Shown in pieces: positions 18,662 to 61,691 of a stretch of DNA of 64,000 nucleotides. Origin of the DNA: an uncultured Candidatus Saccharibacteria bacterium (lineage in GTDB: Bacteria > Patescibacteriota > Minisyncoccia > Phycocordibacterales > Zambryskibacteraceae); contig CAYHDI010000001.1 in NCBI GenBank assembly GCA_964355645.1, positions 92,897 through 156,896 on the forward strand, read 5' to 3'. A program made the translations under genes and the position numbers. The stretch's first letter is position 1, and every line of letters starts with the position of its first letter. Below the pieces are notes generated by a model that saw nothing but the letters and a program-made list of their open reading frames with translations, made no database searches and had not been told where the DNA came from.

Positions 18662-19324
18662 TTAGTTGCGAAGCCGTTTTCTCTTGTTGACACTCGGTGT
18701 CAACACAGATTCCCCCTCAAGTTCTTTCAGGAGGTCCTTCTTTTTAATGATGTCTTTTAGTGACTCTTCTGCGAACTTTTTATACTCCAGAATGTTTTTA
18801 AATTGTTCTAAAATTAAATTTTTTGTGCACAATTTATTGCCAGCCTTTCCCATATACTCATCCCAGCTTGATTTGTACAAAGCACTTTGAGGATAACGAT
18901 GGACTTTATTATTAAGGTTTACATAAACACTTGTATGCAAAAGTTGCTCATTTGTTTCAATATGCACGGCTTTAAATTTTCCTTGAAAAAGAGAGCCACT
19001 TCTTCTGTTTCTAATATTAAAATATTTTGCGTAACCCATTCCTATTTTATGCATAAATCGTTCCACCCCTTTGTCACAAACTTGACGGAGAATGAAATGA
19101 TAGTGGTTCGGATTTAAGCAATAGGCAATAAATTCTACTAATTTTTTACTCCTTGATTCGGAATGGTTTCTATCAATATTTCCAATCTTTTCTGAAGTAT
19201 TGAATTCAGACATTCCCTCAATAAATCTGTCTAAATCTTTAGAAGAAGTAAAAATAATTCGCTTATCAACCCCTCTGTTGAAAATGTGGTAAAATTCATT
19301 TTCTTCAAATTTTAAGTTTCGCAT
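18662..19324 (-). CDS. Y1 (HUH) transposase, IS200/RAYT-like
   Basis: HUH-type motif NPNHYHFIL with a downstream catalytic-Tyr region. Flanked on both sides by the identical hairpin GTTGACACTCGGTGTCAAC. Confidence 0.65.
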   Translation of the reverse strand: MRNLKFEENEFYHIFNRGVDKRIIFTSSKDLDRFIEGMSEFNTSEKIGNIDRNHSESRSKKLVEFIAYCLNPNHYHFILRQVCDKGVERFMHKIGMGYAKYFNIRNRRSGSLFQGKFKAVHIETNEQLLHTSVYVNLNNKVHRYPQSALYKSSWDEYMGKAGNKLCTKNLILEQFKNILEYKKFAEESLKDIIKKKDLLKELEGESVLTPSVNKRKRLRN

Positions 19325-19370
19325 ATTTCTTTATTTGCTTCACATTATCATGTTGACACTCGGTGTCAAC
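18686..19370. mobile_element. REP-flanked RAYT unit (palindrome-Y1 transposase-palindrome)
   Basis: Identical 19-nt hairpins (8-bp stem GTTGACAC/GTGTCAAC, loop TCG) at 18686-18704 and 19352-19370 bracket the Y1 transposase gene. Confidence 0.6.
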
Positions 19371-23002: not shown

Positions 23003-23060
23003 TCTCACATCAAATTTTTTGGGGCGAGATTCAACGGCTTCGAGAGCGTGAATATGGTTT
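23003..23060 (-). pseudogene. degenerate duplicate of the comM 3' end
   Basis: Minus-strand reading gives NHIHALEAVESRPKKFDV, against DHILEAVEYRPKKFDV* at the true comM end (23623-23670). Nucleotide identity is about 38/50. Confidence 0.4.
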
Positions 23061-23233
23061 GACAATCTAGCGTCAAGCCGTATACTTAATGTATTAGGTC
23101 CCTTCGGGGGACTCCGAGAAACCCGCCCTTCGGCGGGTTTTGATTTTGGCTACTTGCTTTATTTTAGGAGTTGACTATAATAATCATATTATGGCTTCGG
23201 CCTCCGAGGACCTCCGCAAGGGGGTCCGATTTG

Positions 23234-23617
23234 TTATAGTGATTCTAGCCAAGCGTTCTTAAGTTCGTTGAAGATTTTTTCATCAAGTACATCCACCTTG
23301 CGTAATAATCGTTTGTTGCTGATCACTCGCATTTGGCTAAGCTTTGCCCATATAACTCTTTCTTCCGTTTGAACTTTGTAATGGAATCTATCAGTTTTTT
23401 CTTTAGTAGTTAAAGGTAAGATTACAGCTGTTTCTTTGTTGTAAACTTTCATAATAATAACTGGGCGTTCGAAATTTTCATTCTTTCCGTCTATTTCCGC
23501 GCCAACATTAAGACCTAACGAACACCACCATATCTCTCTTGGGTGTACATATTTGGTAATAGGAGCTTTTTCAAGTTCCTTTTTATTTTTATTCCATGTG
23601 TCAAAATCTTTTTGCAT
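23234..23617 (-). CDS. PemK/MazF-family endoribonuclease toxin-like protein (no adjacent protein antitoxin)
   Basis: REIWWCSLGLNVGAEIDGKNENFERPVIIMKVYNKETAVILPLTTKEK aligns with B. subtilis EndoA/MazF ([28 protein letters not shown]...AIVAAITAQ). Confidence 0.55.
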   Translation of the reverse strand: MQKDFDTWNKNKKELEKAPITKYVHPREIWWCSLGLNVGAEIDGKNENFERPVIIMKVYNKETAVILPLTTKEKTDRFHYKVQTEERVIWAKLSQMRVISNKRLLRKVDVLDEKIFNELKNAWLESL

Positions 23618-23622
23618 TTGTT

Positions 23623-25164
23623 TTACACATCAAATTTCTTGGGCCTATACTCGACGGCCTCGAGGATGTGGTCGCGGGTAATTTCCTTAGAATTATCCAA
23701 ATCAGCGATGGTGCGAGCGACTTTAATCATTCGGTGATAAACACGCGGAGAGAATCCTAATCTATCGGACGCAAGATTGAGTGCAGATTTAGCTTCTGGT
23801 TCAAGGGTGATGAAATTTATCAAATCACGCGCACTCATCTCAGAGTTTTTTAATAAATAGGTTTTGTTATTTTTGTTTGATTCAGAAAATCTGGCGCGTT
23901 GAATATTCCTTGCATCAATCACTTTGTTTTTAAAGAATTCACTCTTGGCCCCTTCCTCAATACCTGAAAGTTGTTCAGCATTAATTCTGTCTACTTCAAG
24001 CCAAATATCTATACGATCAATAATCGGTCCGCTCATTTTTCTTCTATATCTTTGGAGTGATGTGGGAGTACAAATACAAGGTTTACCCCGAAAACCATAA
24101 TTACCACATGGGCAAGGATTCATGGCGGCGATTAGTAATACATTTGCTGGGAAGTTTGCTGTACCCTTCGCCCGAGCAACAGATATAACCTTATCCTCTA
24201 GTGGTTGTCTTAAACTCTCTACAACTCGTCTTTCAAATTCCGGAAATTCATCCATGAAAAGTACTCCACGATGAGCAAGAGTTATTTCTCCAGGTTTAGG
24301 CGTCGCTCCTCCACCAACGAGTGAAACATAGGATGATGTGTGGTGAGGCGAACGAAACGGGGGCTCGGTAATAAAATTAGCCAATGTACCAGCCACAGAA
24401 TGGATACTGGTGGCTTCGAGCGCTTCATCAAACGAAAGAGAGGGCAAAATACCAGAGAAGGCTTTGGCCAACATTGATTTTCCTGTTCCCGGAGGGCCAT
24501 ACATGGCCACATTGTGTCCACCAGCAGCGGCGATGAGCAGTCCCCGTTTGGCCCTCTCCTGTCCTCGGATATCAGAGAAATCAACACTAGAAACTTTGGT
24601 TTCTTTTTTAAATTCAGTTGTATTATTTTTTGTTAAAAGCCTTTTTTTGGTTAAGTGCCCAATTAATGAATTTAACGAATCAACCCCGTAGACATCTATA
24701 CCACTGATGATGGCGGCTTCTTCTGCATTTTCTTTAGGCACATATAATTCTTTGATACCTTTTAATTTGGCAAACTGAGTGATGGGCAATACCCCGCGTA
24801 CTGGGCGAAGTGTCCCATCCAATGATAATTCTCCAAGGAAAACTTTTTTCTCCGGATCAAAATCAATTTCTTCTGCAGATAATAAATATGAAAGGGCCAT
24901 AGCCACATCAAATGATGGTCCCTCCTTTTTTTCTGAGGCCGGGGCGAGGGAGATTACAATTTTATGGTTCTGTGCCTTTGGAGAATCATAACCAGAATTT
25001 TTTATGGCCGAACTTAATCTATCTCTGGATTCTTCTACGGCCTTATCTGGTAGTCCAACAACAGCAAAGGCATAAAGTGTCCGGGGCGTGATGTCAGTCT
25101 CCACAGAGACAATCCCCGCTGATAATGCTGAAGTCTGAGCGCTGTAAACTTTTGAGAAGCTCAT
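23623..25164 (-). CDS. comM: Mg-chelatase-like AAA+ protein YifB/ComM
   Basis: N-terminal Lon-like domain, Walker A GPPGTGKSMLAKA, and the YifB C-terminal domain. Confidence 0.9.
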   Translation of the reverse strand: MSFSKVYSAQTSALSAGIVSVETDITPRTLYAFAVVGLPDKAVEESRDRLSSAIKNSGYDSPKAQNHKIVISLAPASEKKEGPSFDVAMALSYLLSAEEIDFDPEKKVFLGELSLDGTLRPVRGVLPITQFAKLKGIKELYVPKENAEEAAIISGIDVYGVDSLNSLIGHLTKKRLLTKNNTTEFKKETKVSSVDFSDIRGQERAKRGLLIAAAGGHNVAMYGPPGTGKSMLAKAFSGILPSLSFDEALEATSIHSVAGTLANFITEPPFRSPHHTSSYVSLVGGGATPKPGEITLAHRGVLFMDEFPEFERRVVESLRQPLEDKVISVARAKGTANFPANVLLIAAMNPCPCGNYGFRGKPCICTPTSLQRYRRKMSGPIIDRIDIWLEVDRINAEQLSGIEEGAKSEFFKNKVIDARNIQRARFSESNKNNKTYLLKNSEMSARDLINFITLEPEAKSALNLASDRLGFSPRVYHRMIKVARTIADLDNSKEITRDHILEAVEYRPKKFDV

Positions 25165-27956: not shown

Positions 27957-28934
27957 ATGTCGCACAATATGGGAACAACTACTGAACTTGAAAAGCTGAA
28001 ACGAGAATTTCTCGAATATACTGAGATAGAGAAGGGTCGCAGTTTGAATACCGTCCGAAACTACGAACATTACCTTGATAGATTCTTCGAATTTTCGAAA
28101 GCGAAGAAAGCGAGCGACATCACGGACGGTCTTCTTCGAGAATATCGTTTGTGGTTGAACAGGCAACCCACCTTCGCCAAGGCTTCGGTGGGCAAAGTCT
28201 CTAGAGCAGAGACTTTGAAAAAGAAAACCCAAAATTATTATTTGATTGCTCTTCGCGCGTTTCTGAAATACATTGCGAAGCGTGGAGTGAAGGTCCTCTC
28301 CCCCGAAGTGATTGAACTCGCGAAGGTTGGTGAGAGGCAAATTGATTTGATTACCTCTGAAGAATTGAATCGCTTGCTCGATGCGCCGGATACTGCCACT
28401 CTGCGCGGTTTGAGAGACAAAGCGATTCTTGAAACATTATTTTCGACCGGACTACGTGTTTCTGAACTCTGTTCCCTACCCCGCGAGATAAATCTCGAAA
28501 GTGATGAGTATTCGATTCGAGGCAAGGGTGAGAAAGTTCGCGTGGTCTTTCTTTCTGATGAAGCGAAACATTCAATCAAAAATTATTTGAATAAAAGAAA
28601 TGATTTGGACGATGCGCTCTTCGTAAAAATCGAAGAGCAAAGTCAAAAGTCAAAAGTCAAAAGTCAAAAGTTGAATGAAGTTGCACCGTTGACTCCCCGT
28701 TCAGTCCAAAGAGTTATTAAACATTATGCCATCAAGGCTGGGATATCAAAAAAAGTGACGCCTCACGTCGTGCGACACATGTTCGCGACCGACCTACTCT
28801 CAAACGGTGCAGATTTACGAAGTGTCCAAATGCTCCTCGGCCATGCAAATATCGCTACTACCCAAATTTATACCCACGTGACAGACGCAGCATTAAGGGC
28901 AACACATAAAAAATTCCATTCGAGGAGGAAATAA
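27957..28934 (+). CDS. xerD: tyrosine recombinase XerC/XerD family
   Basis: N-terminal core-binding domain (TVRNYEHYLDRFFEF) and catalytic R..H..R..Y region (HVVRHMFATDLLSNGADLRSVQMLLGHANIATTQIYTHV). Contains an internal (AGTCAAA)x4 tract. Confidence 0.85.
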   Translation: MSHNMGTTTELEKLKREFLEYTEIEKGRSLNTVRNYEHYLDRFFEFSKAKKASDITDGLLREYRLWLNRQPTFAKASVGKVSRAETLKKKTQNYYLIALRAFLKYIAKRGVKVLSPEVIELAKVGERQIDLITSEELNRLLDAPDTATLRGLRDKAILETLFSTGLRVSELCSLPREINLESDEYSIRGKGEKVRVVFLSDEAKHSIKNYLNKRNDLDDALFVKIEEQSQKSKVKSQKLNEVAPLTPRSVQRVIKHYAIKAGISKKVTPHVVRHMFATDLLSNGADLRSVQMLLGHANIATTQIYTHVTDAALRATHKKFHSRRK

Positions 28935-44312: not shown

Positions 44313-45602
44313 ATGAACCTCTTTTTTGTTAGTATGTCTGTATATATGAAATCTTTGACCAAATTTGGAGTAGAATTTCATCACGAAGTTTTAAGGAATG
44401 GGGTAAATCTTTTCTTGTTCAAAAGGAAGGGCATGCCTATTTATATAAGGGCCACTTTTTTTGCTGGTTCGCGTTTCGATTCAATCCACGGTACGGCACA
44501 TTTCTATGAACACATGCTCGTAGCTGGTACAAAAAAATTTCCCTCAAAAAATTTAATTGCAGACTATATTCAAAAAGTTGGAGGAGAATTTGGAGCGAGT
44601 ACCAGTAATACAATTTTGAAATTCAATGTAGAAATACCCGAGGCTAAGGATTTGGAGACAGGAATAGAAATTATGAGAGAGTGCCTGGTCAACTCGCTTT
44701 TTGATCCCAAGACTATCGAAACCGAAAGAGGCTCGATTATTTCTGAACTTAATGCGAAAAAAACAAACCCAAACGAATATGTTTTTGAAGTATTTTCTAG
44801 AATCGCCTTTCAAGACACGGCTCTTGAGAACAGTGTTCTGGGTACAGAAGCTGAGGTTAAGACAATTAAAAAAGACGATCTTTTAAATTTTGGATCCAAG
44901 TTTATACATTCAGGCAATCTCGCTTTTGTTGCCAGTGGAGATATCAATATTGATGAATTAAAAACAGCACTCGAAAGTATTCATATTCCAGAAGGAAAAA
45001 AATTTGAAGTAGAAAACCAGATACCAACAATAAAAACCCGAAATTCAGAGATTGAATTTTACTCTGGAGTTAAACAGCTACAAGTAATTTTTGGCTGCCG
45101 TACATCCATTGAAACATTTAAGGAATATTGTGCTTTAAGAGTTTTAAACAATGTTCTTGGGGGCGGGAGGGGTTCTCGGTTGATAACCAAACTTCGTTAT
45201 GAAAATGGTTTGGTATATTCAGTCTCAAGTAATATTCTTGAATCTGCTGATTGGGGAATGTTCAGAATAAGGTTATCTTGTGATAAGGATAATTTTAAAC
45301 TGGCGAAGCAGTTAATTTTAGATGAATTCGATAATTTAAAACAGAACAATATTACTACAGAAGAATTGGAGAACAACAAATCTAAAATCTCGAAAGGCTC
45401 AATTCGAGATTTGCAAACATCGATTTCTTGGGTTAATAATCACGAAACAGATTCTATTTTTAACCCAGAAGCTTTAAATACTATTGAAGACCATATTAAA
45501 ATGATAGAAAACCTGACGTTGGATGATATAAGTATGGTGATAAAAAAATATCTAAGAGAAGAAAACTTTTATACCGCTATTTGTGGAGATTATAAAAAGT
45601 AG
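44313..45602 (+). CDS. M16-family (pitrilysin/insulinase-like) zinc peptidase
   Basis: Inverted zinc motif HFYEH with a downstream Glu, and the two-domain M16 architecture. Confidence 0.7.
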   Translation: MNLFFVSMSVYMKSLTKFGVEFHHEVLRNGVNLFLFKRKGMPIYIRATFFAGSRFDSIHGTAHFYEHMLVAGTKKFPSKNLIADYIQKVGGEFGASTSNTILKFNVEIPEAKDLETGIEIMRECLVNSLFDPKTIETERGSIISELNAKKTNPNEYVFEVFSRIAFQDTALENSVLGTEAEVKTIKKDDLLNFGSKFIHSGNLAFVASGDINIDELKTALESIHIPEGKKFEVENQIPTIKTRNSEIEFYSGVKQLQVIFGCRTSIETFKEYCALRVLNNVLGGGRGSRLITKLRYENGLVYSVSSNILESADWGMFRIRLSCDKDNFKLAKQLILDEFDNLKQNNITTEELENNKSKISKGSIRDLQTSISWVNNHETDSIFNPEALNTIEDHIKMIENLTLDDISMVIKKYLREENFYTAICGDYKK

Positions 45603-45654
45603 AACCCCCCAGCTTACGCCAAGGGGTTCGACAATACCGCTGACCGCAGCTACT

Positions 45655-45756
45655 TTACGACGCCGGGGAATCAGCGTCGGAATCCTCGCTGTAGTCATCG
45701 CTGCTGACGTCATCGACGTCCGCATCGTTGGCGCTGTCGCCATCGTCTGCCATCAT
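45655..45756 (-). CDS. 33-aa highly acidic Asp/Ser-rich peptide in a GC-rich segment
   Basis: MMADDGDSANDADVDDVSSDDYSEDSDADSPAS. SD-like GAGGTG 4 nt upstream. Promoter-like TTGACA-N15-TATAAT on the minus strand at about 45845-45875. Not in the ORF track (<60 aa). Confidence 0.35.
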   Translation of the reverse strand: MMADDGDSANDADVDDVSSDDYSEDSDADSPAS

Positions 45757-45895
45757 GATACACCTCTCGAGAGGATTGGGCAGTTTTCCACGCTTCCCTG
45801 ATGTGGGGAGATCGCAGAGGGAGCAAAGATCACTCCTACTTTCAGATTATACCCGTATGGCTTTTTGTCAATATCCAACACGCGGGCCCTTTTTG

Positions 45896-46147
45896 TTATT
45901 TAATTTTTTCTATCTCTTTTGGTTTAATCAATTTTATATCAATAATTTGTTTAGTTTTAATATCAAGATAATCAACGACGGTATTATTCATGGCGTTAAA
46001 ACCTATACGAAAAGTTTTTTCATTTTCCTTCATTAATACCCCAACACATTTATACTTATTTTTATCGGCATCAAGCGCGGTCAACTCAATCACAATATTA
46101 TTTTTTTTGTTTTCTGGGCTGAATTTTGGAATAGGTTTTGCTTTCAT
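45896..46147 (-). CDS. hypothetical small protein (very AT-rich)
   Basis: 83-aa ORF with no motif. Confidence 0.35.
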   Translation of the reverse strand: MKAKPIPKFSPENKKNNIVIELTALDADKNKYKCVGVLMKENEKTFRIGFNAMNNTVVDYLDIKTKQIIDIKLIKPKEIEKIK

Positions 46148-46153
46148 AATTAA

Positions 46154-46645
46154 TTAAATAATTTTTATTTCAGTAATAAACGATTTCGGTATCATATAAT
46201 ATTTTGGTTTTTTCTGTGGATGATTTTTAATTGGTAATGGATGTGTTTTAATGGTTTCCGGATTTTTTAATACTAAATAAGAATTTGTTGCCTTATATAA
46301 AATACCCTCGGAGTACATAATCGAACAATCCCTCTTGGGCATATTTGCAATATAAACAATATCTCGCCATACAACGGATATATTCGACCCGATTTTAATT
46401 TTCTGTAGCCCTTGAATTTCAAAGTTTTTGTTTAAAGAAGTCAGCGCATTTGCTGGAATTATTAATCCTTTAATTATTTGTTTGTTATCTTTGTTTTTAG
46501 ATATTTGTTTTATGAATTCAATGGTTATGTTTTTCTTGCTTTTTCTCATATACCCATATGCTTCATGAATAGACAGTTTTGTAGGTAAATTCTTATTATA
46601 AAAATAAGATGCGTCAATGTATTTTATGTTAGATATTTTTTCCAT
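46154..46645 (-). CDS. hypothetical protein (start trimmed to MEKISNIKY; the ORF-track N-terminal 78 aa are read-through of a GC-rich insert)
   Basis: Composition switches sharply at 46650. The AT-rich part forms a coherent 164-aa ORF. Confidence 0.4.
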   Translation of the reverse strand: MEKISNIKYIDASYFYNKNLPTKLSIHEAYGYMRKSKKNITIEFIKQISKNKDNKQIIKGLIIPANALTSLNKNFEIQGLQKIKIGSNISVVWRDIVYIANMPKRDCSIMYSEGILYKATNSYLVLKNPETIKTHPLPIKNHPQKKPKYYMIPKSFITEIKII

Positions 46646-46700
46646 ATACTTTAATAATAAACCCGGGGAGGATGATAATCTATCCTCCCCGGTTGTGCTG

Positions 46701-46901
46701 TTACTTCTTGGACCCGAAGACGGAATCCCAGAAGCTTGTAGCGCGACTTCCAGATTCGTCGTCGCGACTGAACGATTGGCTGTTCTTCTCTGAGTTCCCC
46801 CGTTCGAACACGCCTGCCTCGGTGGCATCATCTTGTGCCTGGTGCTCTGCCGCCACAGCTTTGCTCGAAGAATCGCCACTGTCGCTTGAGTATTTGTTCA
46901 C
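46701..46901 (-). CDS. 66-aa acidic Ser/Asp-rich protein in a GC-rich segment
   Basis: GTG start preceded by AAAAGGAGG at an 8-nt spacing, and a minus-strand TTGAAA-N17-TATAAT promoter at about 46985-47015. Confidence 0.45.
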   Translation of the reverse strand: MNKYSSDSGDSSSKAVAAEHQAQDDATEAGVFERGNSEKNSQSFSRDDESGSRATSFWDSVFGSKK

Positions 46902-47157
46902 AGTTCTCGCCTCCTTTTCGAGCGGTTAAAGACAAGGCTGGCTGTCATCCGACTACCAGCATTATTTACATTCTATATGCAATTATAAGACAATAATTGA
47001 CTTGTTTCAAGCTTGTATAAGTTGTTTTACCCATCCAGCATGCGGGCCCTTTTTGTTTGAGAATTTTATTTAATGGTTAAGTTTCGCGATTGGTTTAAGT
47101 TATATGATTACTGTACAAGTTGTTGAAATTAATGTCTATTTATATTAAAATCATTTT

Positions 47158-50477: not shown

Positions 50478-50506
50478 TTATCGGTTCTTTCCCTGTTTTA
50501 GATCTT

Positions 50507-50590
50507 GTGGATACCCACAACTTTTTTAAAGAGAATACTATATAATAGAGAATAGTAATTCTTTAATTTTCTTAAACTAATGAAAAAAGA
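50507..50590 (+). repeat. copy 1 of 70-bp direct repeat + ATGAAAAAA (duplicated promoter/5' end of the surface protein gene)
   Basis: TGTGGATACCCACAACTTTTTTAAAGAGAATACTATATAATAGAGAATAGTAATTCTTTAATTTTCTTAA is identical at 50507-50576 and 52256-52325. Both copies continue into ATGAAAAAA. Confidence 0.85.
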
Positions 50591-50593
50591 GCG

Positions 50594-50620
50594 TTGTGGG
50601 GTTACCACAACGCTCCGTGT
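50594..50620 (-). terminator. rho-independent terminator of the metzincin cassette
   Basis: GAGCGTTGTGG-GGTTA-CCACAACGCTC (11-bp stem), followed on the minus strand by TTTTTTCAT. Confidence 0.6.
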
Positions 50621-50665
50621 TTCGCGCGAATGGATATCGCAGAAACTATGCAAATCAATCCAATC

Positions 50666-52033
50666 TTACTGGCAAACGGTTTTTTCGAGAGCAAGTTTGA
50701 GCATGAACTCGCGCTGACCCTGATGTGCTTCCATGATCGAGCACCGAAGACCACCGTACTTCCTCTCGAGATCCCTCGTCTTGTACAGCATGAGAATGTA
50801 CAGGACGTCGTACTTGCTGGGATATCCGGGCACGAACCCGGTGCGATCATCAATGGTGAATCCCTCGCACTTCTGACCCTGAAGGCTTTGGAATCCGCAC
50901 CCGTGACCAACTCCAACGAAATGGAGCAGTTCATGGCGGAAACTTCCCGGATTCTTGCGCCAATCGTCGAGAGACATGGATACGACTAGACCTGCCCCAA
51001 GCTCTCCATTCCCTAGATAACTTACTCCACCTTGAGCTGGGATAGGAGCAATCTTTGAGGAGATGTATACATTCACGCCGTCTGTCGTCGTGACCTCGCT
51101 CTGATTTCCAGCACGAAGGTATTGACTACCGAAGTACTGGTTCAGAACGTCTGCAGCTGACCATGCCAGTGCCGAATCGGTCGGAGCGAATTGAGCATCG
51201 CCCAAATCGTTTCGGAGCGCATACGGCTGTGGGAGGGTCTTGTGAGTGGCGTTGTTGTAATACCACACACCATTCACAAGTTGACGAGGGTAGAACGATG
51301 AACCATCACTCCCCGCAATGTACGCCAAGCTGATGTCGAACGGTAGCCTTACGCCGGCATACACGCCCGAAGGAATGGTCATGCCGAGAGGCTCAACAAC
51401 GAGTACAAGAGTCTTCGTCATGTCCGCCTTCCGGATGGTTCCGTCGCACTTCCTCGCCGTGTACAACCGACTCGTCCCAGGCATCGCGTCAACAATGCAC
51501 GAAACAGAATCGGTATTCGCAAGCGCGGTCGGAAGAGTGAAACTTCCGTCCGATGACGTCACATCAACACTTGCAGTGTCGGCACCCTTGAAAAGAGTGA
51601 CACGTACACTCTTCGGTGTAGCCCAATCATTTGCCAGGTCGACAATCATTACTCGACCATTCACAACTGACTGTGGTACAGGAACGGGCTTGCAGTCACT
51701 CTTGGTATCTCCGCTCTTTACCGAATGTACCGTAGCACAAACAGTATAGAGTCCGGGCATCGCGGGTACTGTGCCACACGTAGCTGGGTTGCCATTCACC
51801 GTGCAGTCAGTCGTAACGCTTCCAACGTTTGAGGAAGCTTGGACTGAAATCACGATCAGAGGCATCGGGTATGCCTGCGTCACAGACGCCGACACATTCA
51901 CCGAAAGCGTTTCTTGCACCGGCGGGGGCGGAGGATTTCCATTCCCCGTCGGAGAACTGCCACACGCTGTGGCAATGAAAGAGATCACGGCCGCGCAAAC
52001 GGCCGTGGCGAAACCACGGATGATGCGCGACAT
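50666..52033 (-). CDS. secreted lipoprotein zinc metalloprotease (metzincin-like HExxHxxGxxH), GC-rich foreign gene
   Basis: Lipoprotein signal MSRIIRGFATAVCAAVISFIATAC|GSS and the motif HELLHFVGVGHG. GC is about 55-60% against ~33% in the flanks. It has its own promoter (TTGACA x2 ... TATGGT) and SD (CAGGAGG) at about 52040-52200. Confidence 0.6.
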   Translation of the reverse strand: MSRIIRGFATAVCAAVISFIATACGSSPTGNGNPPPPPVQETLSVNVSASVTQAYPMPLIVISVQASSNVGSVTTDCTVNGNPATCGTVPAMPGLYTVCATVHSVKSGDTKSDCKPVPVPQSVVNGRVMIVDLANDWATPKSVRVTLFKGADTASVDVTSSDGSFTLPTALANTDSVSCIVDAMPGTSRLYTARKCDGTIRKADMTKTLVLVVEPLGMTIPSGVYAGVRLPFDISLAYIAGSDGSSFYPRQLVNGVWYYNNATHKTLPQPYALRNDLGDAQFAPTDSALAWSAADVLNQYFGSQYLRAGNQSEVTTTDGVNVYISSKIAPIPAQGGVSYLGNGELGAGLVVSMSLDDWRKNPGSFRHELLHFVGVGHGCGFQSLQGQKCEGFTIDDRTGFVPGYPSKYDVLYILMLYKTRDLERKYGGLRCSIMEAHQGQREFMLKLALEKTVCQ

Positions 52034-52255
52034 TGAAACCTCCTGCCTGACGAATCAGGACTTTTAGATTGGATGATTACAAAGAACTGTTCAGTCGAAC
52101 AGCTCTTCATAGAGGAGTCATTCGACTCAGGCGCTTTCGCACCTCTTACGTCCACCATACACCCAAACCATAAATTTGTCAAGTGTCAAGTCCATCTTCC
52201 CTGTGTATAGCTTTTTAGTCGGAAATCATGCCTAAGAGACATATTTACTCAATCA

Positions 52256-52337
52256 TTGTGGATACCCACAACTTTTTTAAAGAGAATACTATATAATAGA
52301 GAATAGTAATTCTTTAATTTTCTTAACAATGAAAAAA
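52256..52337 (+). repeat. copy 2 of the 70-bp direct repeat (native promoter of the surface protein gene)
   Basis: Identical to 50507-50576. Carries the palindromic TTGTGG-ATAC-CCACAA element and TATAAT-like boxes. Confidence 0.85.
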
Positions 52338-59009: not shown

Positions 59010-60692
59010 ATGACCTTTCCTGAAATTTTTGAAGTTTTGCTTGAAGAACGAGGACTAGTAGGTGATTCTCGAGAAGAATTTCTGCATCCTGATTATGGGA
59101 AACTCCACCATCCCTTGCTTTTGCCGGATATGGAGAAAGCTCGAGACAAAGTGATTGAAGTCATGGGTCGAAATGAGCACATTGTGGTTTTTTCTGACTA
59201 CGATGCGGATGGAATTCCCGGAGCAGTAGTGCTCTCGGACTTTTTCCATCGGGCGAAATATGAAAATGTTTCATTTTATATTCCACATCGACACGATGAA
59301 GGCTTCGGTTTGAACATGGAAGCAGTGGATGAGATGGCCGAACGTGGAGCGAAGCTTATCATCACCGTGGATTGTGGAACCGCGGATATAAAGGAGGTGG
59401 CGAAGGCAAACAAAAAAGGCATGGAGGTGATTATCACAGATCATCACGAGAGTTCAAAATTACCCAAAGCGTATGCGATAGTCAACCCAAAGAGAAAAGA
59501 TAGTACTTATCCTTTCAATCCGCCAGCCGGCGGACTTTGTGGAGCGGCCTTAGCTTACAAACTAGTTCAAGCAATTCTTATGAAAGAAGAATCCGCCAGT
59601 TGGCGGATTGGGATTAAAACAGGACAAGAGAAGTGGTCGCTCGACATGGTGGGTATCGCCACACTTTCAGACATGGTTCCTCTCGTCGGGGAGAATAGAA
59701 TTTTGGCCAAGTTCGGTTTGGATGTTTTGCGCAAATCCCCGCGCCCCGGACTTTCAGCTCTCTTCAATAAACTCAAGATTGAACAAAGATTTTTGACCGA
59801 GGATGATGTCACTTTCATGATTACTCCGCGCATCAATGCTGCGTCGAGAATGGGTAAACCCGAAGATGCGTTCAAACTTCTTTCGACTACAAATATGTTG
59901 GAAGCCGTAAGACTGGCCGAACATTTGGAAAAAATAAACAATGAACGCAAAGGCACGGTCGCTGCACTTGTGAAGGAGGCGAAGAAACACCTCGAGGCTC
60001 GCGAAAAGATAAATTCGGTGATTGTGGTGGGGAATCCGGAGTGGAGGCCATCACTCCTCGGCCTTGTAGCCAACTCTCTCGTCGAAGAATATATGCGACC
60101 GGCGTTTGTGTGGGGAAGAGATGGAGATAATGTGCTCAAGGGTTCGTGTCGTTCATACAATGGATACAATTTGTTCGATTTGATGAACGGAGCAAAGGAT
60201 TCGTTTCTAGAATTTGGTGGACATGCTGGTGCGGGAGGATTTTCTGTGACCCTTGAGCAGATTACAAAGCTTGAAGAAAAACTTTCGGAAATGGTCGGGA
60301 AACACTCGGTGTCAAAGGATGCCCAGACACCGAGTGTTGAGGAGACCACGAAAAAAATTCAGATTTCACTTTCAGACATCGGAGAAGATTTGTGGAAAAC
60401 CGTAGAACAATTCGCTCCATTCGGTATGGGGAATCAGAAACCAATTTTCAATATCAAGAATGCAGAAATCAAACAAGTTCGACAATTCGGCAAAGAAAAT
60501 AATCATTTAGAGATTGTATTTAAAAGTGGAGCAAAGGATATAAAAGCCATCTCCTTCTTCTCTTCTCCTACTTCCTACTCCTTTCTCCCTACTCCAGGAA
60601 TCTCCTGCACTCTCACCGCCTGTCTCGAGAAATCCTATTTCCGCAATCGTCCAGAAGTCCGTCTTCGAATCGTTGATATTATTGAACAATGA
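59010..60692 (+). CDS. recJ: single-stranded-DNA-specific exonuclease RecJ
   Basis: DHH motifs (VVFSDYDADGIPGAV; VIITDHHE), a DHHA1 domain and a C-terminal OB-like domain. Contains an in-frame REP-like palindrome at 60301-60338. Confidence 0.9.
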   Translation: MTFPEIFEVLLEERGLVGDSREEFLHPDYGKLHHPLLLPDMEKARDKVIEVMGRNEHIVVFSDYDADGIPGAVVLSDFFHRAKYENVSFYIPHRHDEGFGLNMEAVDEMAERGAKLIITVDCGTADIKEVAKANKKGMEVIITDHHESSKLPKAYAIVNPKRKDSTYPFNPPAGGLCGAALAYKLVQAILMKEESASWRIGIKTGQEKWSLDMVGIATLSDMVPLVGENRILAKFGLDVLRKSPRPGLSALFNKLKIEQRFLTEDDVTFMITPRINAASRMGKPEDAFKLLSTTNMLEAVRLAEHLEKINNERKGTVAALVKEAKKHLEAREKINSVIVVGNPEWRPSLLGLVANSLVEEYMRPAFVWGRDGDNVLKGSCRSYNGYNLFDLMNGAKDSFLEFGGHAGAGGFSVTLEQITKLEEKLSEMVGKHSVSKDAQTPSVEETTKKIQISLSDIGEDLWKTVEQFAPFGMGNQKPIFNIKNAEIKQVRQFGKENNHLEIVFKSGAKDIKAISFFSSPTSYSFLPTPGISCTLTACLEKSYFRNRPEVRLRIVDIIEQ

Positions 60693-60723
60693 TAACAATT
60701 TTTACTGACGGTACGTTGAGATT

Positions 60724-60933
60724 TTATTCGAAGTCTTCTTTTGAGAGTTTGGATTGACGCAAGACTGAATGAAAAGTTCCCATTGGGATTTCTTTTTTAT
60801 TTGCGGGGATGATAACCACAAATCGTTTGGATTTAGAAACTAATTTTAGATGGCTACCTTTTTGAGAAACTATTGCAAACCCATTTGCTTCCAAAACTTT
60901 AACAATTTTTTTGGAAGAGTGGAGCCTAGGCAT
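60724..60933 (-). CDS. hicA: HicA mRNA-interferase toxin
   Basis: KKIVKVLEANGFAIVSQKGSHLKL...IPMGTFHSVLRQSKL matches the HicA/YcfA family. Confidence 0.75.
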   Translation of the reverse strand: MPRLHSSKKIVKVLEANGFAIVSQKGSHLKLVSKSKRFVVIIPANKKEIPMGTFHSVLRQSKLSKEDFE

Positions 60934-61144
60934 ACTGAAGCGAGGTGCTTCGAATGACTGGATTTGTAACCCTAGTTACTTTATTTGTTTGAGTGTTTTC
61001 AAGATACAATTCAAGAGCTTCTCTTATATTCGCCAGAGCTGATTTCTGTGTCCTACCAAAACTTGAGATATCAATATTAAGACACTGGGCAACAAAATGT
61101 CTCCCTTCTTTCCAAATCACGATTTGTAGATTAACTTTTCTCAT
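60926..61144 (-). CDS. hicB: HicB-family antitoxin
   Basis: ...WKEGRHFVAQCLNIDISSFGRTQKSALANIREALELYLE has the HicB/UPF0150 fold signature. 8-nt overlap with hicA. Confidence 0.65.
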   Translation of the reverse strand: MRKVNLQIVIWKEGRHFVAQCLNIDISSFGRTQKSALANIREALELYLENTQTNKVTRVTNPVIRSTSLQYA

Positions 61145-61187
61145 GTTTTTATATTATCACATGCTGACCCATGCTACAATTCTATCA

Positions 61188-61691
61188 ATGATAACAATTT
61201 TTACTGATGGGTCGTCGAAAGGGAATCCGGGGCCGGGAGGATGGGGAGCGGTAGTTAGTTATGAGAAGACAGTAAACAGTACACAGCAAGAATGGATTAC
61301 AGAGCTCGGAGGAAGAGAAAATCATACTACAAACAATCGTATGGAATTAACCGCAGCGATTAAGGCTCTCGAATCTTTATCTGTGGGAGTTGAAGTTACT
61401 CTTTATTCTGATGCGACATATGTGGTGAAGGGGATGACCGAATGGATACACGGGTGGATGAAAAACAATTGGCGCACGAGTGCGAAGAAAGCCGTCGAGA
61501 ACCAAGATTTGTGGATGGATTTGTATCAGGCGAGTGTGGACAAAAAAATTCATTGGAAACTTATTGCTGGCCATGCAGGTATTCAAGCGAACGAAAGGTG
61601 TGATGAGATAGCCACTTCTTTCGCGGACTCCGCGCCGACTCATTTGTATAATGGTGCGAAGCATGGATATAAAATTTCTCTTAGAGCATAG
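61188..61691 (+). CDS. rnhA: ribonuclease HI (start at MITIFTDGS)
   Basis: TDGSSKGNPGPGGWGAV, NNRMELTA, and the YSDATYVVKGMTEWIHGWMKNNW catalytic residues. Confidence 0.85.
   Translation: MITIFTDGSSKGNPGPGGWGAVVSYEKTVNSTQQEWITELGGRENHTTNNRMELTAAIKALESLSVGVEVTLYSDATYVVKGMTEWIHGWMKNNWRTSAKKAVENQDLWMDLYQASVDKKIHWKLIAGHAGIQANERCDEIATSFADSAPTHLYNGAKHGYKISLRA

Follow-up and report, generated by a model that had tools for sequence, protein, structure and literature searches.

How small toxin-antitoxin and defence genes spread without a visible mobile element is an old question. Integrative elements may target the end of a gene and carry its replacement, as do the tRNA-gene and dusA 5′-end integrases, and cis-mobilizable elements (CIMEs) are their recombinase-less derivatives. 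Integron cassettes and pdif (Xer-site) modules often carry toxin-antitoxin genes, and bacterial pangenome studies know hotspots between conserved core genes which are turned over by homologous recombination in the flanks. Closest to the present case is insertion with long target duplication, documented previously almost only for restriction-modification systems, which insert with target duplications that are long and variable and with no other mobile element (Furuta, Abe and Kobayashi 2010, Nucleic Acids Research, PMC2853133, after Nobusato et al. 2000, Gene 259:99). In many cases these repeats span a translation start or stop, most cases come from naturally competent species, and DNA breakage by the cargo was suggested as the cause (PMC2853133). 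Here we analyse a predicted hicBA toxin-antitoxin pair located between recJ and rnhA in a 64,000-nt stretch of contig CAYHDI010000001.1 (hereafter the window), which belongs to a bacterium of the Patescibacteria/Parcubacteria in the candidate phyla radiation (CPR). We conclude that the pair is an insertion with long target duplication, which is a known phenomenon with a new cargo in a new lineage, and we estimate at roughly 0.6 the probability that the duplication was made in place by a host process and kept by selection.

The rnhA start is present on both sides of hicBA

Reading the sequence directly, we found the 25-nt core CAATGATAACAATTTTTACTGA[C/T]GG in two copies, at 60687-60711 and 61186-61210, identical in 24 of 25 positions. 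The repeat extends at lower identity to 33 nt (29/33; Table 1). With up to three mismatches allowed, the 25-mer occurs at just these two sites in the window; 100 dinucleotide-preserving shuffles did not yield a single match. The initial annotation of the locus, made from the sequence alone, had described a 23-bp duplication with 22/23 identity, ATGATAACAATTTTTACTGACGG at 60689-60711 and ATGATAACAATTTTTACTGATGG at 61188-61210. Both copies are located there, but the duplication is longer, 25-33 bp, and starts two nucleotides earlier, with CAATG. The ATGA of the left copy includes the stop codon TGA of recJ (60690-60692) and the right copy is the start of rnhA (MITIFTDG), as the annotation had read them. 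It had also placed the hicA/hicB pair exactly between the copies, and indeed hicA, hicB and a 41-nt spacer lie there. The insert without the 33-nt repeat measures 466 bp (60720-61185), with the hicA stop 4 nt past the left copy. Both recJ and rnhA are intact.

For comparison, 29 loci were fetched from species-level genomes with RecJ as the query and more contigs were obtained through protein look-ups (designated by L numbers below); the junction counts refer to the 25 related loci that have both recJ and rnhA. The gene order recJ-rnhA-comEC is conserved among related loci. The TGA of recJ overlaps the ATG of rnhA as ATGA in 10 of the 25, one locus has TAATG at the junction, and three have spacers of 2-13 nt. 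The nearest empty sites come from relatives with 78-82 % protein identity, and in the two closest, L033 and L038, the same 23-mer is found once, at the rnhA start. The ATGA overlap in relatives, and the single copy in those that match the motif, identify the left copy as what is left of the rnhA start, still at its ancestral site. The overlap had been proposed as the ancestral state already in the initial annotation, which had suggested comparing the junction in related genomes and noted that a repeat pair without hicAB would make the repeat a conserved intergenic motif; the hicBA-free relatives with the motif, L033 and L038, have one copy each. The predicted sequence of the empty junction in the window's own lineage is ...ATTATTGAACAATGATAACAATTTTTACTGAYGGGTCGTCGAAAGG. 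Exact look-ups of the 167-aa RnhA and of HicA returned no record.

The insertion is present in ERZ1292618, a metagenome of 0.1-µm-filtered groundwater from the Hainich aquifer, and the same arrangement was found in L001/L002, L032 and L035. L002 is a Logan assembly of another run, and L032 is a second European Nucleotide Archive assembly of the same strain with many indel errors. We had considered the latter (P0001/L032) as an independent closest relative by RecJ and rejected it, as it is the same strain in an error-rich assembly. L035, a contig from another well, has identical insertion boundaries and 94.8 % identity over 1113 nt. The presence of the insertion in independent assemblies, made from other samples with other assemblers, and in L035 shows that it is not an assembly artefact, and it is older than the split from the L035 strain.

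The differences between the window and L035 are strongly clustered. No difference falls within the 328 nt at 60459-60786, which run from the end of recJ through the relic repeat into the 3′ end of hicA, and the neighbouring segments differ by 5-17 %. Such a mosaic pattern indicates recent and frequent recombination in the population.

Gene-end duplications at other insertions

According to the initial annotation, the same gene-end duplication recurs at a mazF-like and a metzincin insertion in the window, and we found it at both. A second copy of the final 39 nt of comM (23626-23664) lies at 23006-23044 with 32/39 identity, and six of the seven differences are synonymous (LEAVEYRPKKFDV vs LEAVESRPKKFDV). 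The gene for the MazF/PemK-like toxin (23234-23617; Pfam 7e-14) begins 5 nt after the comM stop. It is a lone toxin gene with no antitoxin gene recognisable upstream, and it is followed by about 190 nt with three GC-rich hairpins and then by the relic comM end.

The second parallel concerns a metzincin-like gene (50666-52033, minus strand, 455 aa) with an HExxHxxGxxH motif and no Pfam match, whose GC content is 52-55 % in surroundings of 30-38 %. Its repeat of 71-87 nt consists of a 71-nt perfect core, beginning at 50505 and 52256, plus three single-base indels and covers the whole intergenic region and the first 9-10 nt (AATGAAAAAA) of the next gene (755 aa), thus reaching the start codon. 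L042, a contig of the same aquifer from a strain that differs slightly, in three upstream positions, has one copy and no metzincin insert. It is a probable empty allele of the site, although an assembler can collapse a 71-nt repeat, and the metzincin insertion seems to be polymorphic and recent.

The pattern recurs also at related hicBA cassettes. A HicB profile scan of metagenome contigs gave 80 loci, and the 44 cassettes with 500 nt on each side were used. Counting flanking direct repeats with a score of at least 17, we found 9/44 cassettes to be repeat-flanked, compared with 5/126 control windows shifted within the same loci (one-sided Fisher p=0.0018); some of the five control windows resemble neighbouring repeat-flanked segments. 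The repeats at these loci are 17-254 nt long and their distance to hicBA varies by locus. The longest, in L118, matches in 253 of 254 nt, and that of L109 in 57 of 61 nt. In L037, with a HicB 61 % identical to ours, hicBA lies within a 32-nt repeat (31/32) whose second copy holds the ATG of the downstream gene.

Two loci are more complex. The 3′ end of map (methionine aminopeptidase) is present three times in each of L048:2176-4029 and L085:2329-4826, which share two cassettes, hicBA and another unit of about 80 % identity between the contigs. The order of the cassettes is reversed, and each is followed by a copy of the map end. In L085 the map relic beside hicBA has 90 % identity with L048's functional map end but only 80 % with its own. 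These arrays look integron-like, with no visible integrase.

Gene starts covered by the repeats are those of rnhA, the 755-aa gene and the downstream gene of L037, and the gene ends so covered are those of comM and map. The three repeats in the window are 33, 39 and 87 nt long and their sequences are unrelated between sites.

Two other repeats of the window were considered as parallel cases and rejected. The 40-nt repeat at 45873/47033, a candidate for the mazF-like case, shrinks to 25 nt (23/25) and is not a gene end. In the same region (45583-47072), two GC-rich segments (about 48-50 %) with no detectable homology to each other surround an AT-rich two-gene stretch (27-29 % GC), and after each of them on the plus strand (before it on the minus strand) comes a copy of ATCCARCAYGCGGGCCCTTTTTGTT. 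A different phenomenon underlies the repeat at 18679/19345, which is part of the hairpins around a gene at 18662-19324 (220 aa; region 18662-19370) with a weak match to REP-associated tyrosine transposases (RAYT), which is flanked by two hairpin-containing 26-nt repeats GTTGACACTCGGTGTCAAC.

The recJ-rnhA junction as a landing site

Eleven of the 25 loci have a filled junction. Their cargos, which are not related to one another, are hicBA, diversity-generating retroelements in two loci, a PaaX-like gene and a nucleotidyltransferase, as well as several genes without known function. The junction is a recurrent landing site for accessory genes. In L034 a different, GC-rich insert occupies it. L103, a distant relative from the same aquifer whose RecJ is 53 % identical, carries another member of this hicBA family at the junction, in the opposite orientation (L103:1581-2530); it is accompanied by an extra 97-aa open reading frame (ORF), and a flanking repeat is absent. 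In the ten filled junctions other than ours, a flanking repeat never rose above the shuffled background.

The inserts of L005 and L020 are the diversity-generating retroelements, with a reverse transcriptase and bAvd, and the C-terminal repeat of the target gene recurs downstream. In both, the end of the reverse transcriptase gene falls on the start of rnhA, as that of recJ does in other loci.

The HicAB pair

HicA is a clear member of its family. It matches the HicA structures 4c26, 6g26 and 1whz in the PDB and has the catalytic histidine of the GSH motif. This histidine, in the sequence KGSH, aligns with that of 1whz and with the position in 4c26 which we take to be the one mutated in H24A.

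Regarding HicB, the sequence evidence is weak: the DUF7387 match is below the cutoff, and a profile search found a HicB chain at E=0.0096. Homologues of the protein carry the JGI names HicB family or UPF0150. The AlphaFold model (pLDDT 92) has a beta-beta-beta-alpha topology, and its best fold matches are 2yzt (TTHA1756), 6g1n_C and 3k6q. The model superposes on 6g1n_C, the HicB of Burkholderia, with a TM score of 0.67 and a root-mean-square deviation of 1.8; 3k6q is another antitoxin. Our HicB corresponds to the N-terminal HicB domain alone, and no C-terminal DNA-binding domain of the ribbon-helix-helix or helix-turn-helix type was found. Short HicB proteins such as TTHA1756 likewise have no DNA-binding domain, so this is a known subtype. 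The two genes overlap by 8 nt. Judging from the family membership of HicA and the predicted fold of HicB, they probably form a HicAB type II toxin-antitoxin pair.

Putative promoter boxes around the insert

Extended -10-like boxes were read by eye and backed by a position count. The last codons of recJ hold such a box, TGATATTAT (60674-60682), 6 nt before the relic ATG. At most of the empty sites (L004-L038), a TGATATAAT-like box is found inside the last codons of recJ, in the stretch GTTGATATAAT that encodes V-D-I-I, and almost every locus, whether empty or filled, has a TGnTAnnnT box that begins 12-13 nt before the rnhA ATG. The spacer of our insert has two divergent boxes, TGCTACAAT (61172-61180, plus strand), 7 nt before the rnhA ATG, and TGTGATAAT (61161-61153, minus strand), 8 nt before the hicB ATG. 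A scan of 60400-61400 for classical -35/-10 promoters and terminators predicted no promoter in the spacer and no terminator.

Among the 53 ORFs of the window that start with ATG, 20 have TANNNT at -14 to -12, compared with a mean of 3.7 at other positions, and just four have a Shine-Dalgarno-like motif. This suggests that leaderless transcription is widespread in this organism. In this lineage rnhA is probably read from a promoter within the last codons of recJ. Since the spacer box lies at the distance expected for a leaderless transcript, the insert probably gives rnhA a new promoter at its right end, and the gene would thus keep one.

The relic rnhA start opens a 22-codon ORF, MITIFTDGTLRFYSKSSFESLD (60689-60757), antisense over the 3′ end of hicA, and the promoter box embedded in recJ is kept. 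The genes recJ and hicA are convergent with 31 nt between their stops, and no terminator was predicted there. With this arrangement, antisense transcription into the toxin gene would be possible.

Table 1 Coordinates of the hicBA locus, of the parallel insertions in the window and of filled junctions in relatives (window positions unless a locus is named)
Feature	Position	Strand	Basis
recJ, 560 aa	59010..60692	+	Pfam DHH/DHHA1/RecJ_OB
Direct repeat copy 1, relic rnhA start overlapping the recJ stop at the ancestral position	60687..60719 (core 60687-60711)	+	Sequence, ATGA overlap of relatives
hicA, predicted toxin gene, 69 aa	60724..60933	-	Pfam HicA_toxin PF07927, E=4e-14, above gathering score
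Short hicB, putative antitoxin gene, 72 aa	60926..61144	-	Weak Pfam DUF7387 match, profile search, AlphaFold model
Putative control region, 41 nt, part of the insert	61145..61185	.	Sequence
Direct repeat copy 2, functional rnhA start	61186..61218	+	Sequence
rnhA, RNase HI, 167 aa	61188..61691	+	Pfam RNase_H, E=5e-42; start aligned with relatives
mazF/pemK-like insertion, gene between functional comM 3′ end and relic	23006..23664	-	Sequence, Pfam
Metzincin-like insertion between copies of an 87-nt segment (50502-50588, 52252-52337)	50502..52337	.	Sequence; L042
Filled junctions after recJ	L005:5663-8276; L020:5669-8191; L018:5636-6676; L022:5639-6165		

Origin of the duplication

The insert encodes hicA and hicB alone, and we found no transposase, integrase or prophage in it or beside it, nor terminal inverted repeats in 60650-61250. 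The initial annotation had recommended looking for an integrase or recombinase associated with such cassettes. A Pfam scan of the 71 ORFs of the window gave a single recombinase, a XerC/D-like tyrosine recombinase (27957-28931) that is distant from all three cassettes and 30 kb away from hicBA. The signature from which a shared cassette-integration mechanism was proposed there does recur, but, given the unrelated repeats of varying length and the absence of an integrase gene nearby, this mechanism is most likely not a dedicated integrase and more probably the integrase-free process known from restriction-modification systems. Carriage by phages was also considered and rejected, as 2.9 million viral contigs contained 5 weak relatives of our HicB vs at least 586 in metagenome contigs.

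The reading we prefer, duplication in place by a host process followed by selection, runs as follows. A 466-bp segment, comprising the minimal hicB-hicA unit and its putative 41-nt control region, entered about 31 nt inside the 5′ end of rnhA, and a target stretch of no less than 25-33 bp became duplicated. The recJ stop is preserved in the left copy together with a now dead rnhA start, and the right copy restores the whole rnhA. The duplication might be produced by host recombination or repair acting on incoming DNA, e.g. by the fill-in of widely staggered nicks or by a template switch. Selection would keep the insertions that duplicate a gene end, as in a tightly packed genome with overlapping genes almost only these leave both neighbours functional, and a toxin-antitoxin pair would itself disfavour later loss. 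Neither transposition nor a single site-specific integrase fits well with repeats of variable length and unrelated sequence, or with the lack of terminal repeats and recombinases.

Several points weigh against in-place duplication. A search with a degenerate junction pattern in a metagenome collection including Hainich assemblies did not find an empty site of the same species. The repeat (33 nt with 29/33, core 25 nt with 24/25) is longer than a transposon-type target duplication, but with 25-33 bp it is borderline, at the lower edge of the published criterion of >30 bp. The lack of repeats at the ten other filled junctions means that duplication is not the sole route into this site or that repeats decay. 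Finally, some relics differ mostly synonymously from the functional gene end (comM) or match the gene end of another lineage (map in L085/L048), and at those loci the import of a foreign gene end fits better than duplication in place.

This last point leads to the first of the alternatives, a Campbell-type integration, in which a small circle, or DNA made circular after its uptake, with hicBA and an rnhA start of another lineage was inserted at the resident rnhA start by a single crossover, so that the repeat was imported; between its repeats the cassette might then loop out and enter the same conserved gene end in further genomes. In its favour, all the repeated segments come from gene ends of high conservation (the N-terminus of rnhA, the C-termini of map and comM). 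Besides the synonymous differences in comM and the likeness of the L085 map relic to L048, the reordered cassettes of these two loci, each with its copy of the map end, speak for it. So would L036, a contig of 625 nt with a near-identical cassette (hicA part and spacer 100 %, hicB 93.8 %) in front of an rnhA allele only 66 % identical to ours, the break lying just past the end of the 23-nt repeat; L038 is an empty site with the L036-type rnhA. If real, L036 would be direct evidence of cassette transfer between lineages at the repeat, but it has a coverage of 1 and could be a chimera joined at a shared 21-mer, and we give it little weight. At rnhA itself the differences between the copies are too few, two synonymous ones in eight codons, resembling strain divergence, and the perfect 71-nt and 253/254 repeats resemble in-place duplication. 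A stretch of 25-33 bp is also short homology for RecA-dependent recombination, and the origin of the first repeat-flanked copy is left unexplained. The rnhA repeat data do not separate duplication in place from import. Imported homology is supported by the comM and map cases and may account for later spread; as the source of the repeat at our locus we consider it possible, though not probable.

Related to this, we also entertain, as a still more tentative proposal, that an addiction cassette and a host gene end together make up an integrase-free mobile unit, which would loop out at its repeats and re-enter the same gene end elsewhere. A first insertion with target duplication would be followed by homologous or near-homologous single crossovers after DNA uptake, across strains or species. 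If true, this would amount to integron-like gene capture in CPR bacteria with pieces of housekeeping genes as recombination sites, and repeated rounds would build shuffled cassette arrays at the rnhA start, the map 3′ end and the comM 3′ end.

A tyrosine or serine recombinase acting in trans on the rnhA start as its attachment site, with hicBA as a recombinase-less, CIME-like element between attL and attR, is unlikely. Integrases typically hit conserved gene ends and regenerate them, the tandem map 3′ ends, three each in L048 and L085, look like accretion at an attachment site, and L103 has a hicBA of the same family at the same junction. However, none of the three cassettes in the window has an integrase within or next to it, and the one Xer-like gene there is distant, the repeats of 17-254 nt share no sequence and hence no common att core, and the junctions have neither dyad symmetry nor an inverted repeat. 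The L103 cassette is without a repeat, and the many unrelated cargos of the junction fit a permissive hotspot better.

Less plausible again, and in our opinion very improbable, is a transposon or a miniature inverted-repeat transposable element (MITE) with an unusually long target site duplication. An insert bracketed by direct repeats is the classical signature of transposition, and the window contains the RAYT-like gene. But terminal inverted repeats and a transposase are missing from the insert, and instead of the short duplication of fixed length that transposons, insertion sequences and MITEs produce, the repeat length varies and so do the insert boundaries relative to hicBA. We saw no conserved terminal sequences across insertions, and the hairpin repeats of the RAYT-like gene are unrelated to these sites.

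Readings of the left copy as a chance match, as a conserved regulatory motif or as an artefact of assembly can practically be dismissed, for even though the rnhA start is conserved and the region AT-rich, the shuffles gave no match, the copy lies over the recJ stop exactly where relatives have their rnhA start, the relatives with the motif and no hicBA are single-copy, and four assemblies agree.

Comparison with known systems

The hicBA insertion resembles gene-end integrative elements and CIMEs in its repeat of a conserved gene end, the restored target gene and the possible tandem arrays, and differs from them in having no integrase, in its small unit of about 0.5 kb and in the unrelated repeats of the different sites. 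With integron and pdif modules it shares the promoter-poor format of one or two genes and, as far as L048 and L085 with their map ends can be compared, arrays separated by repeats. It has, however, neither an integron integrase nor a symmetric site of the attC or dif type, and what is repeated is part of a host gene. The hotspot concept fits the unrelated cargos at the recJ-rnhA junction, but leaves the duplicated target, here seen only in the lineage of the window, unexplained.

The similarities are most complete with insertion with long target duplication. In both cases direct repeats of tens to hundreds of bp surround a small selfish or addictive unit and are single-copy at the empty site, transposase and integrase are lacking, the repeat length is variable, and starts or stops are often spanned so that the target gene stays intact. 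Both occur in host lineages with DNA-uptake genes; the window encodes ComEC (identified by Pfam) and an Mg-chelatase/ComM-type protein. What differs is the cargo, hicBA and also the lone MazF-like and metzincin-like genes in place of restriction-modification, and the host, a member of the Patescibacteria/Parcubacteria. As hicBA does not cut DNA, breakage made by the cargo cannot be the general cause of such insertions. A literature search of limited reach brought up no earlier description of this signature, either at toxin-antitoxin pairs or in CPR bacteria, which is not proof of novelty.

A signature of restriction-modification systems is thus extended to a toxin-antitoxin pair and to a CPR bacterium, whose genome is tiny and packed, with two further cases in the same 64 kb. 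In the aquifer population, at least one such insertion apparently occurs both as a filled and as a probable empty allele, which makes the mechanism testable at the level of reads.

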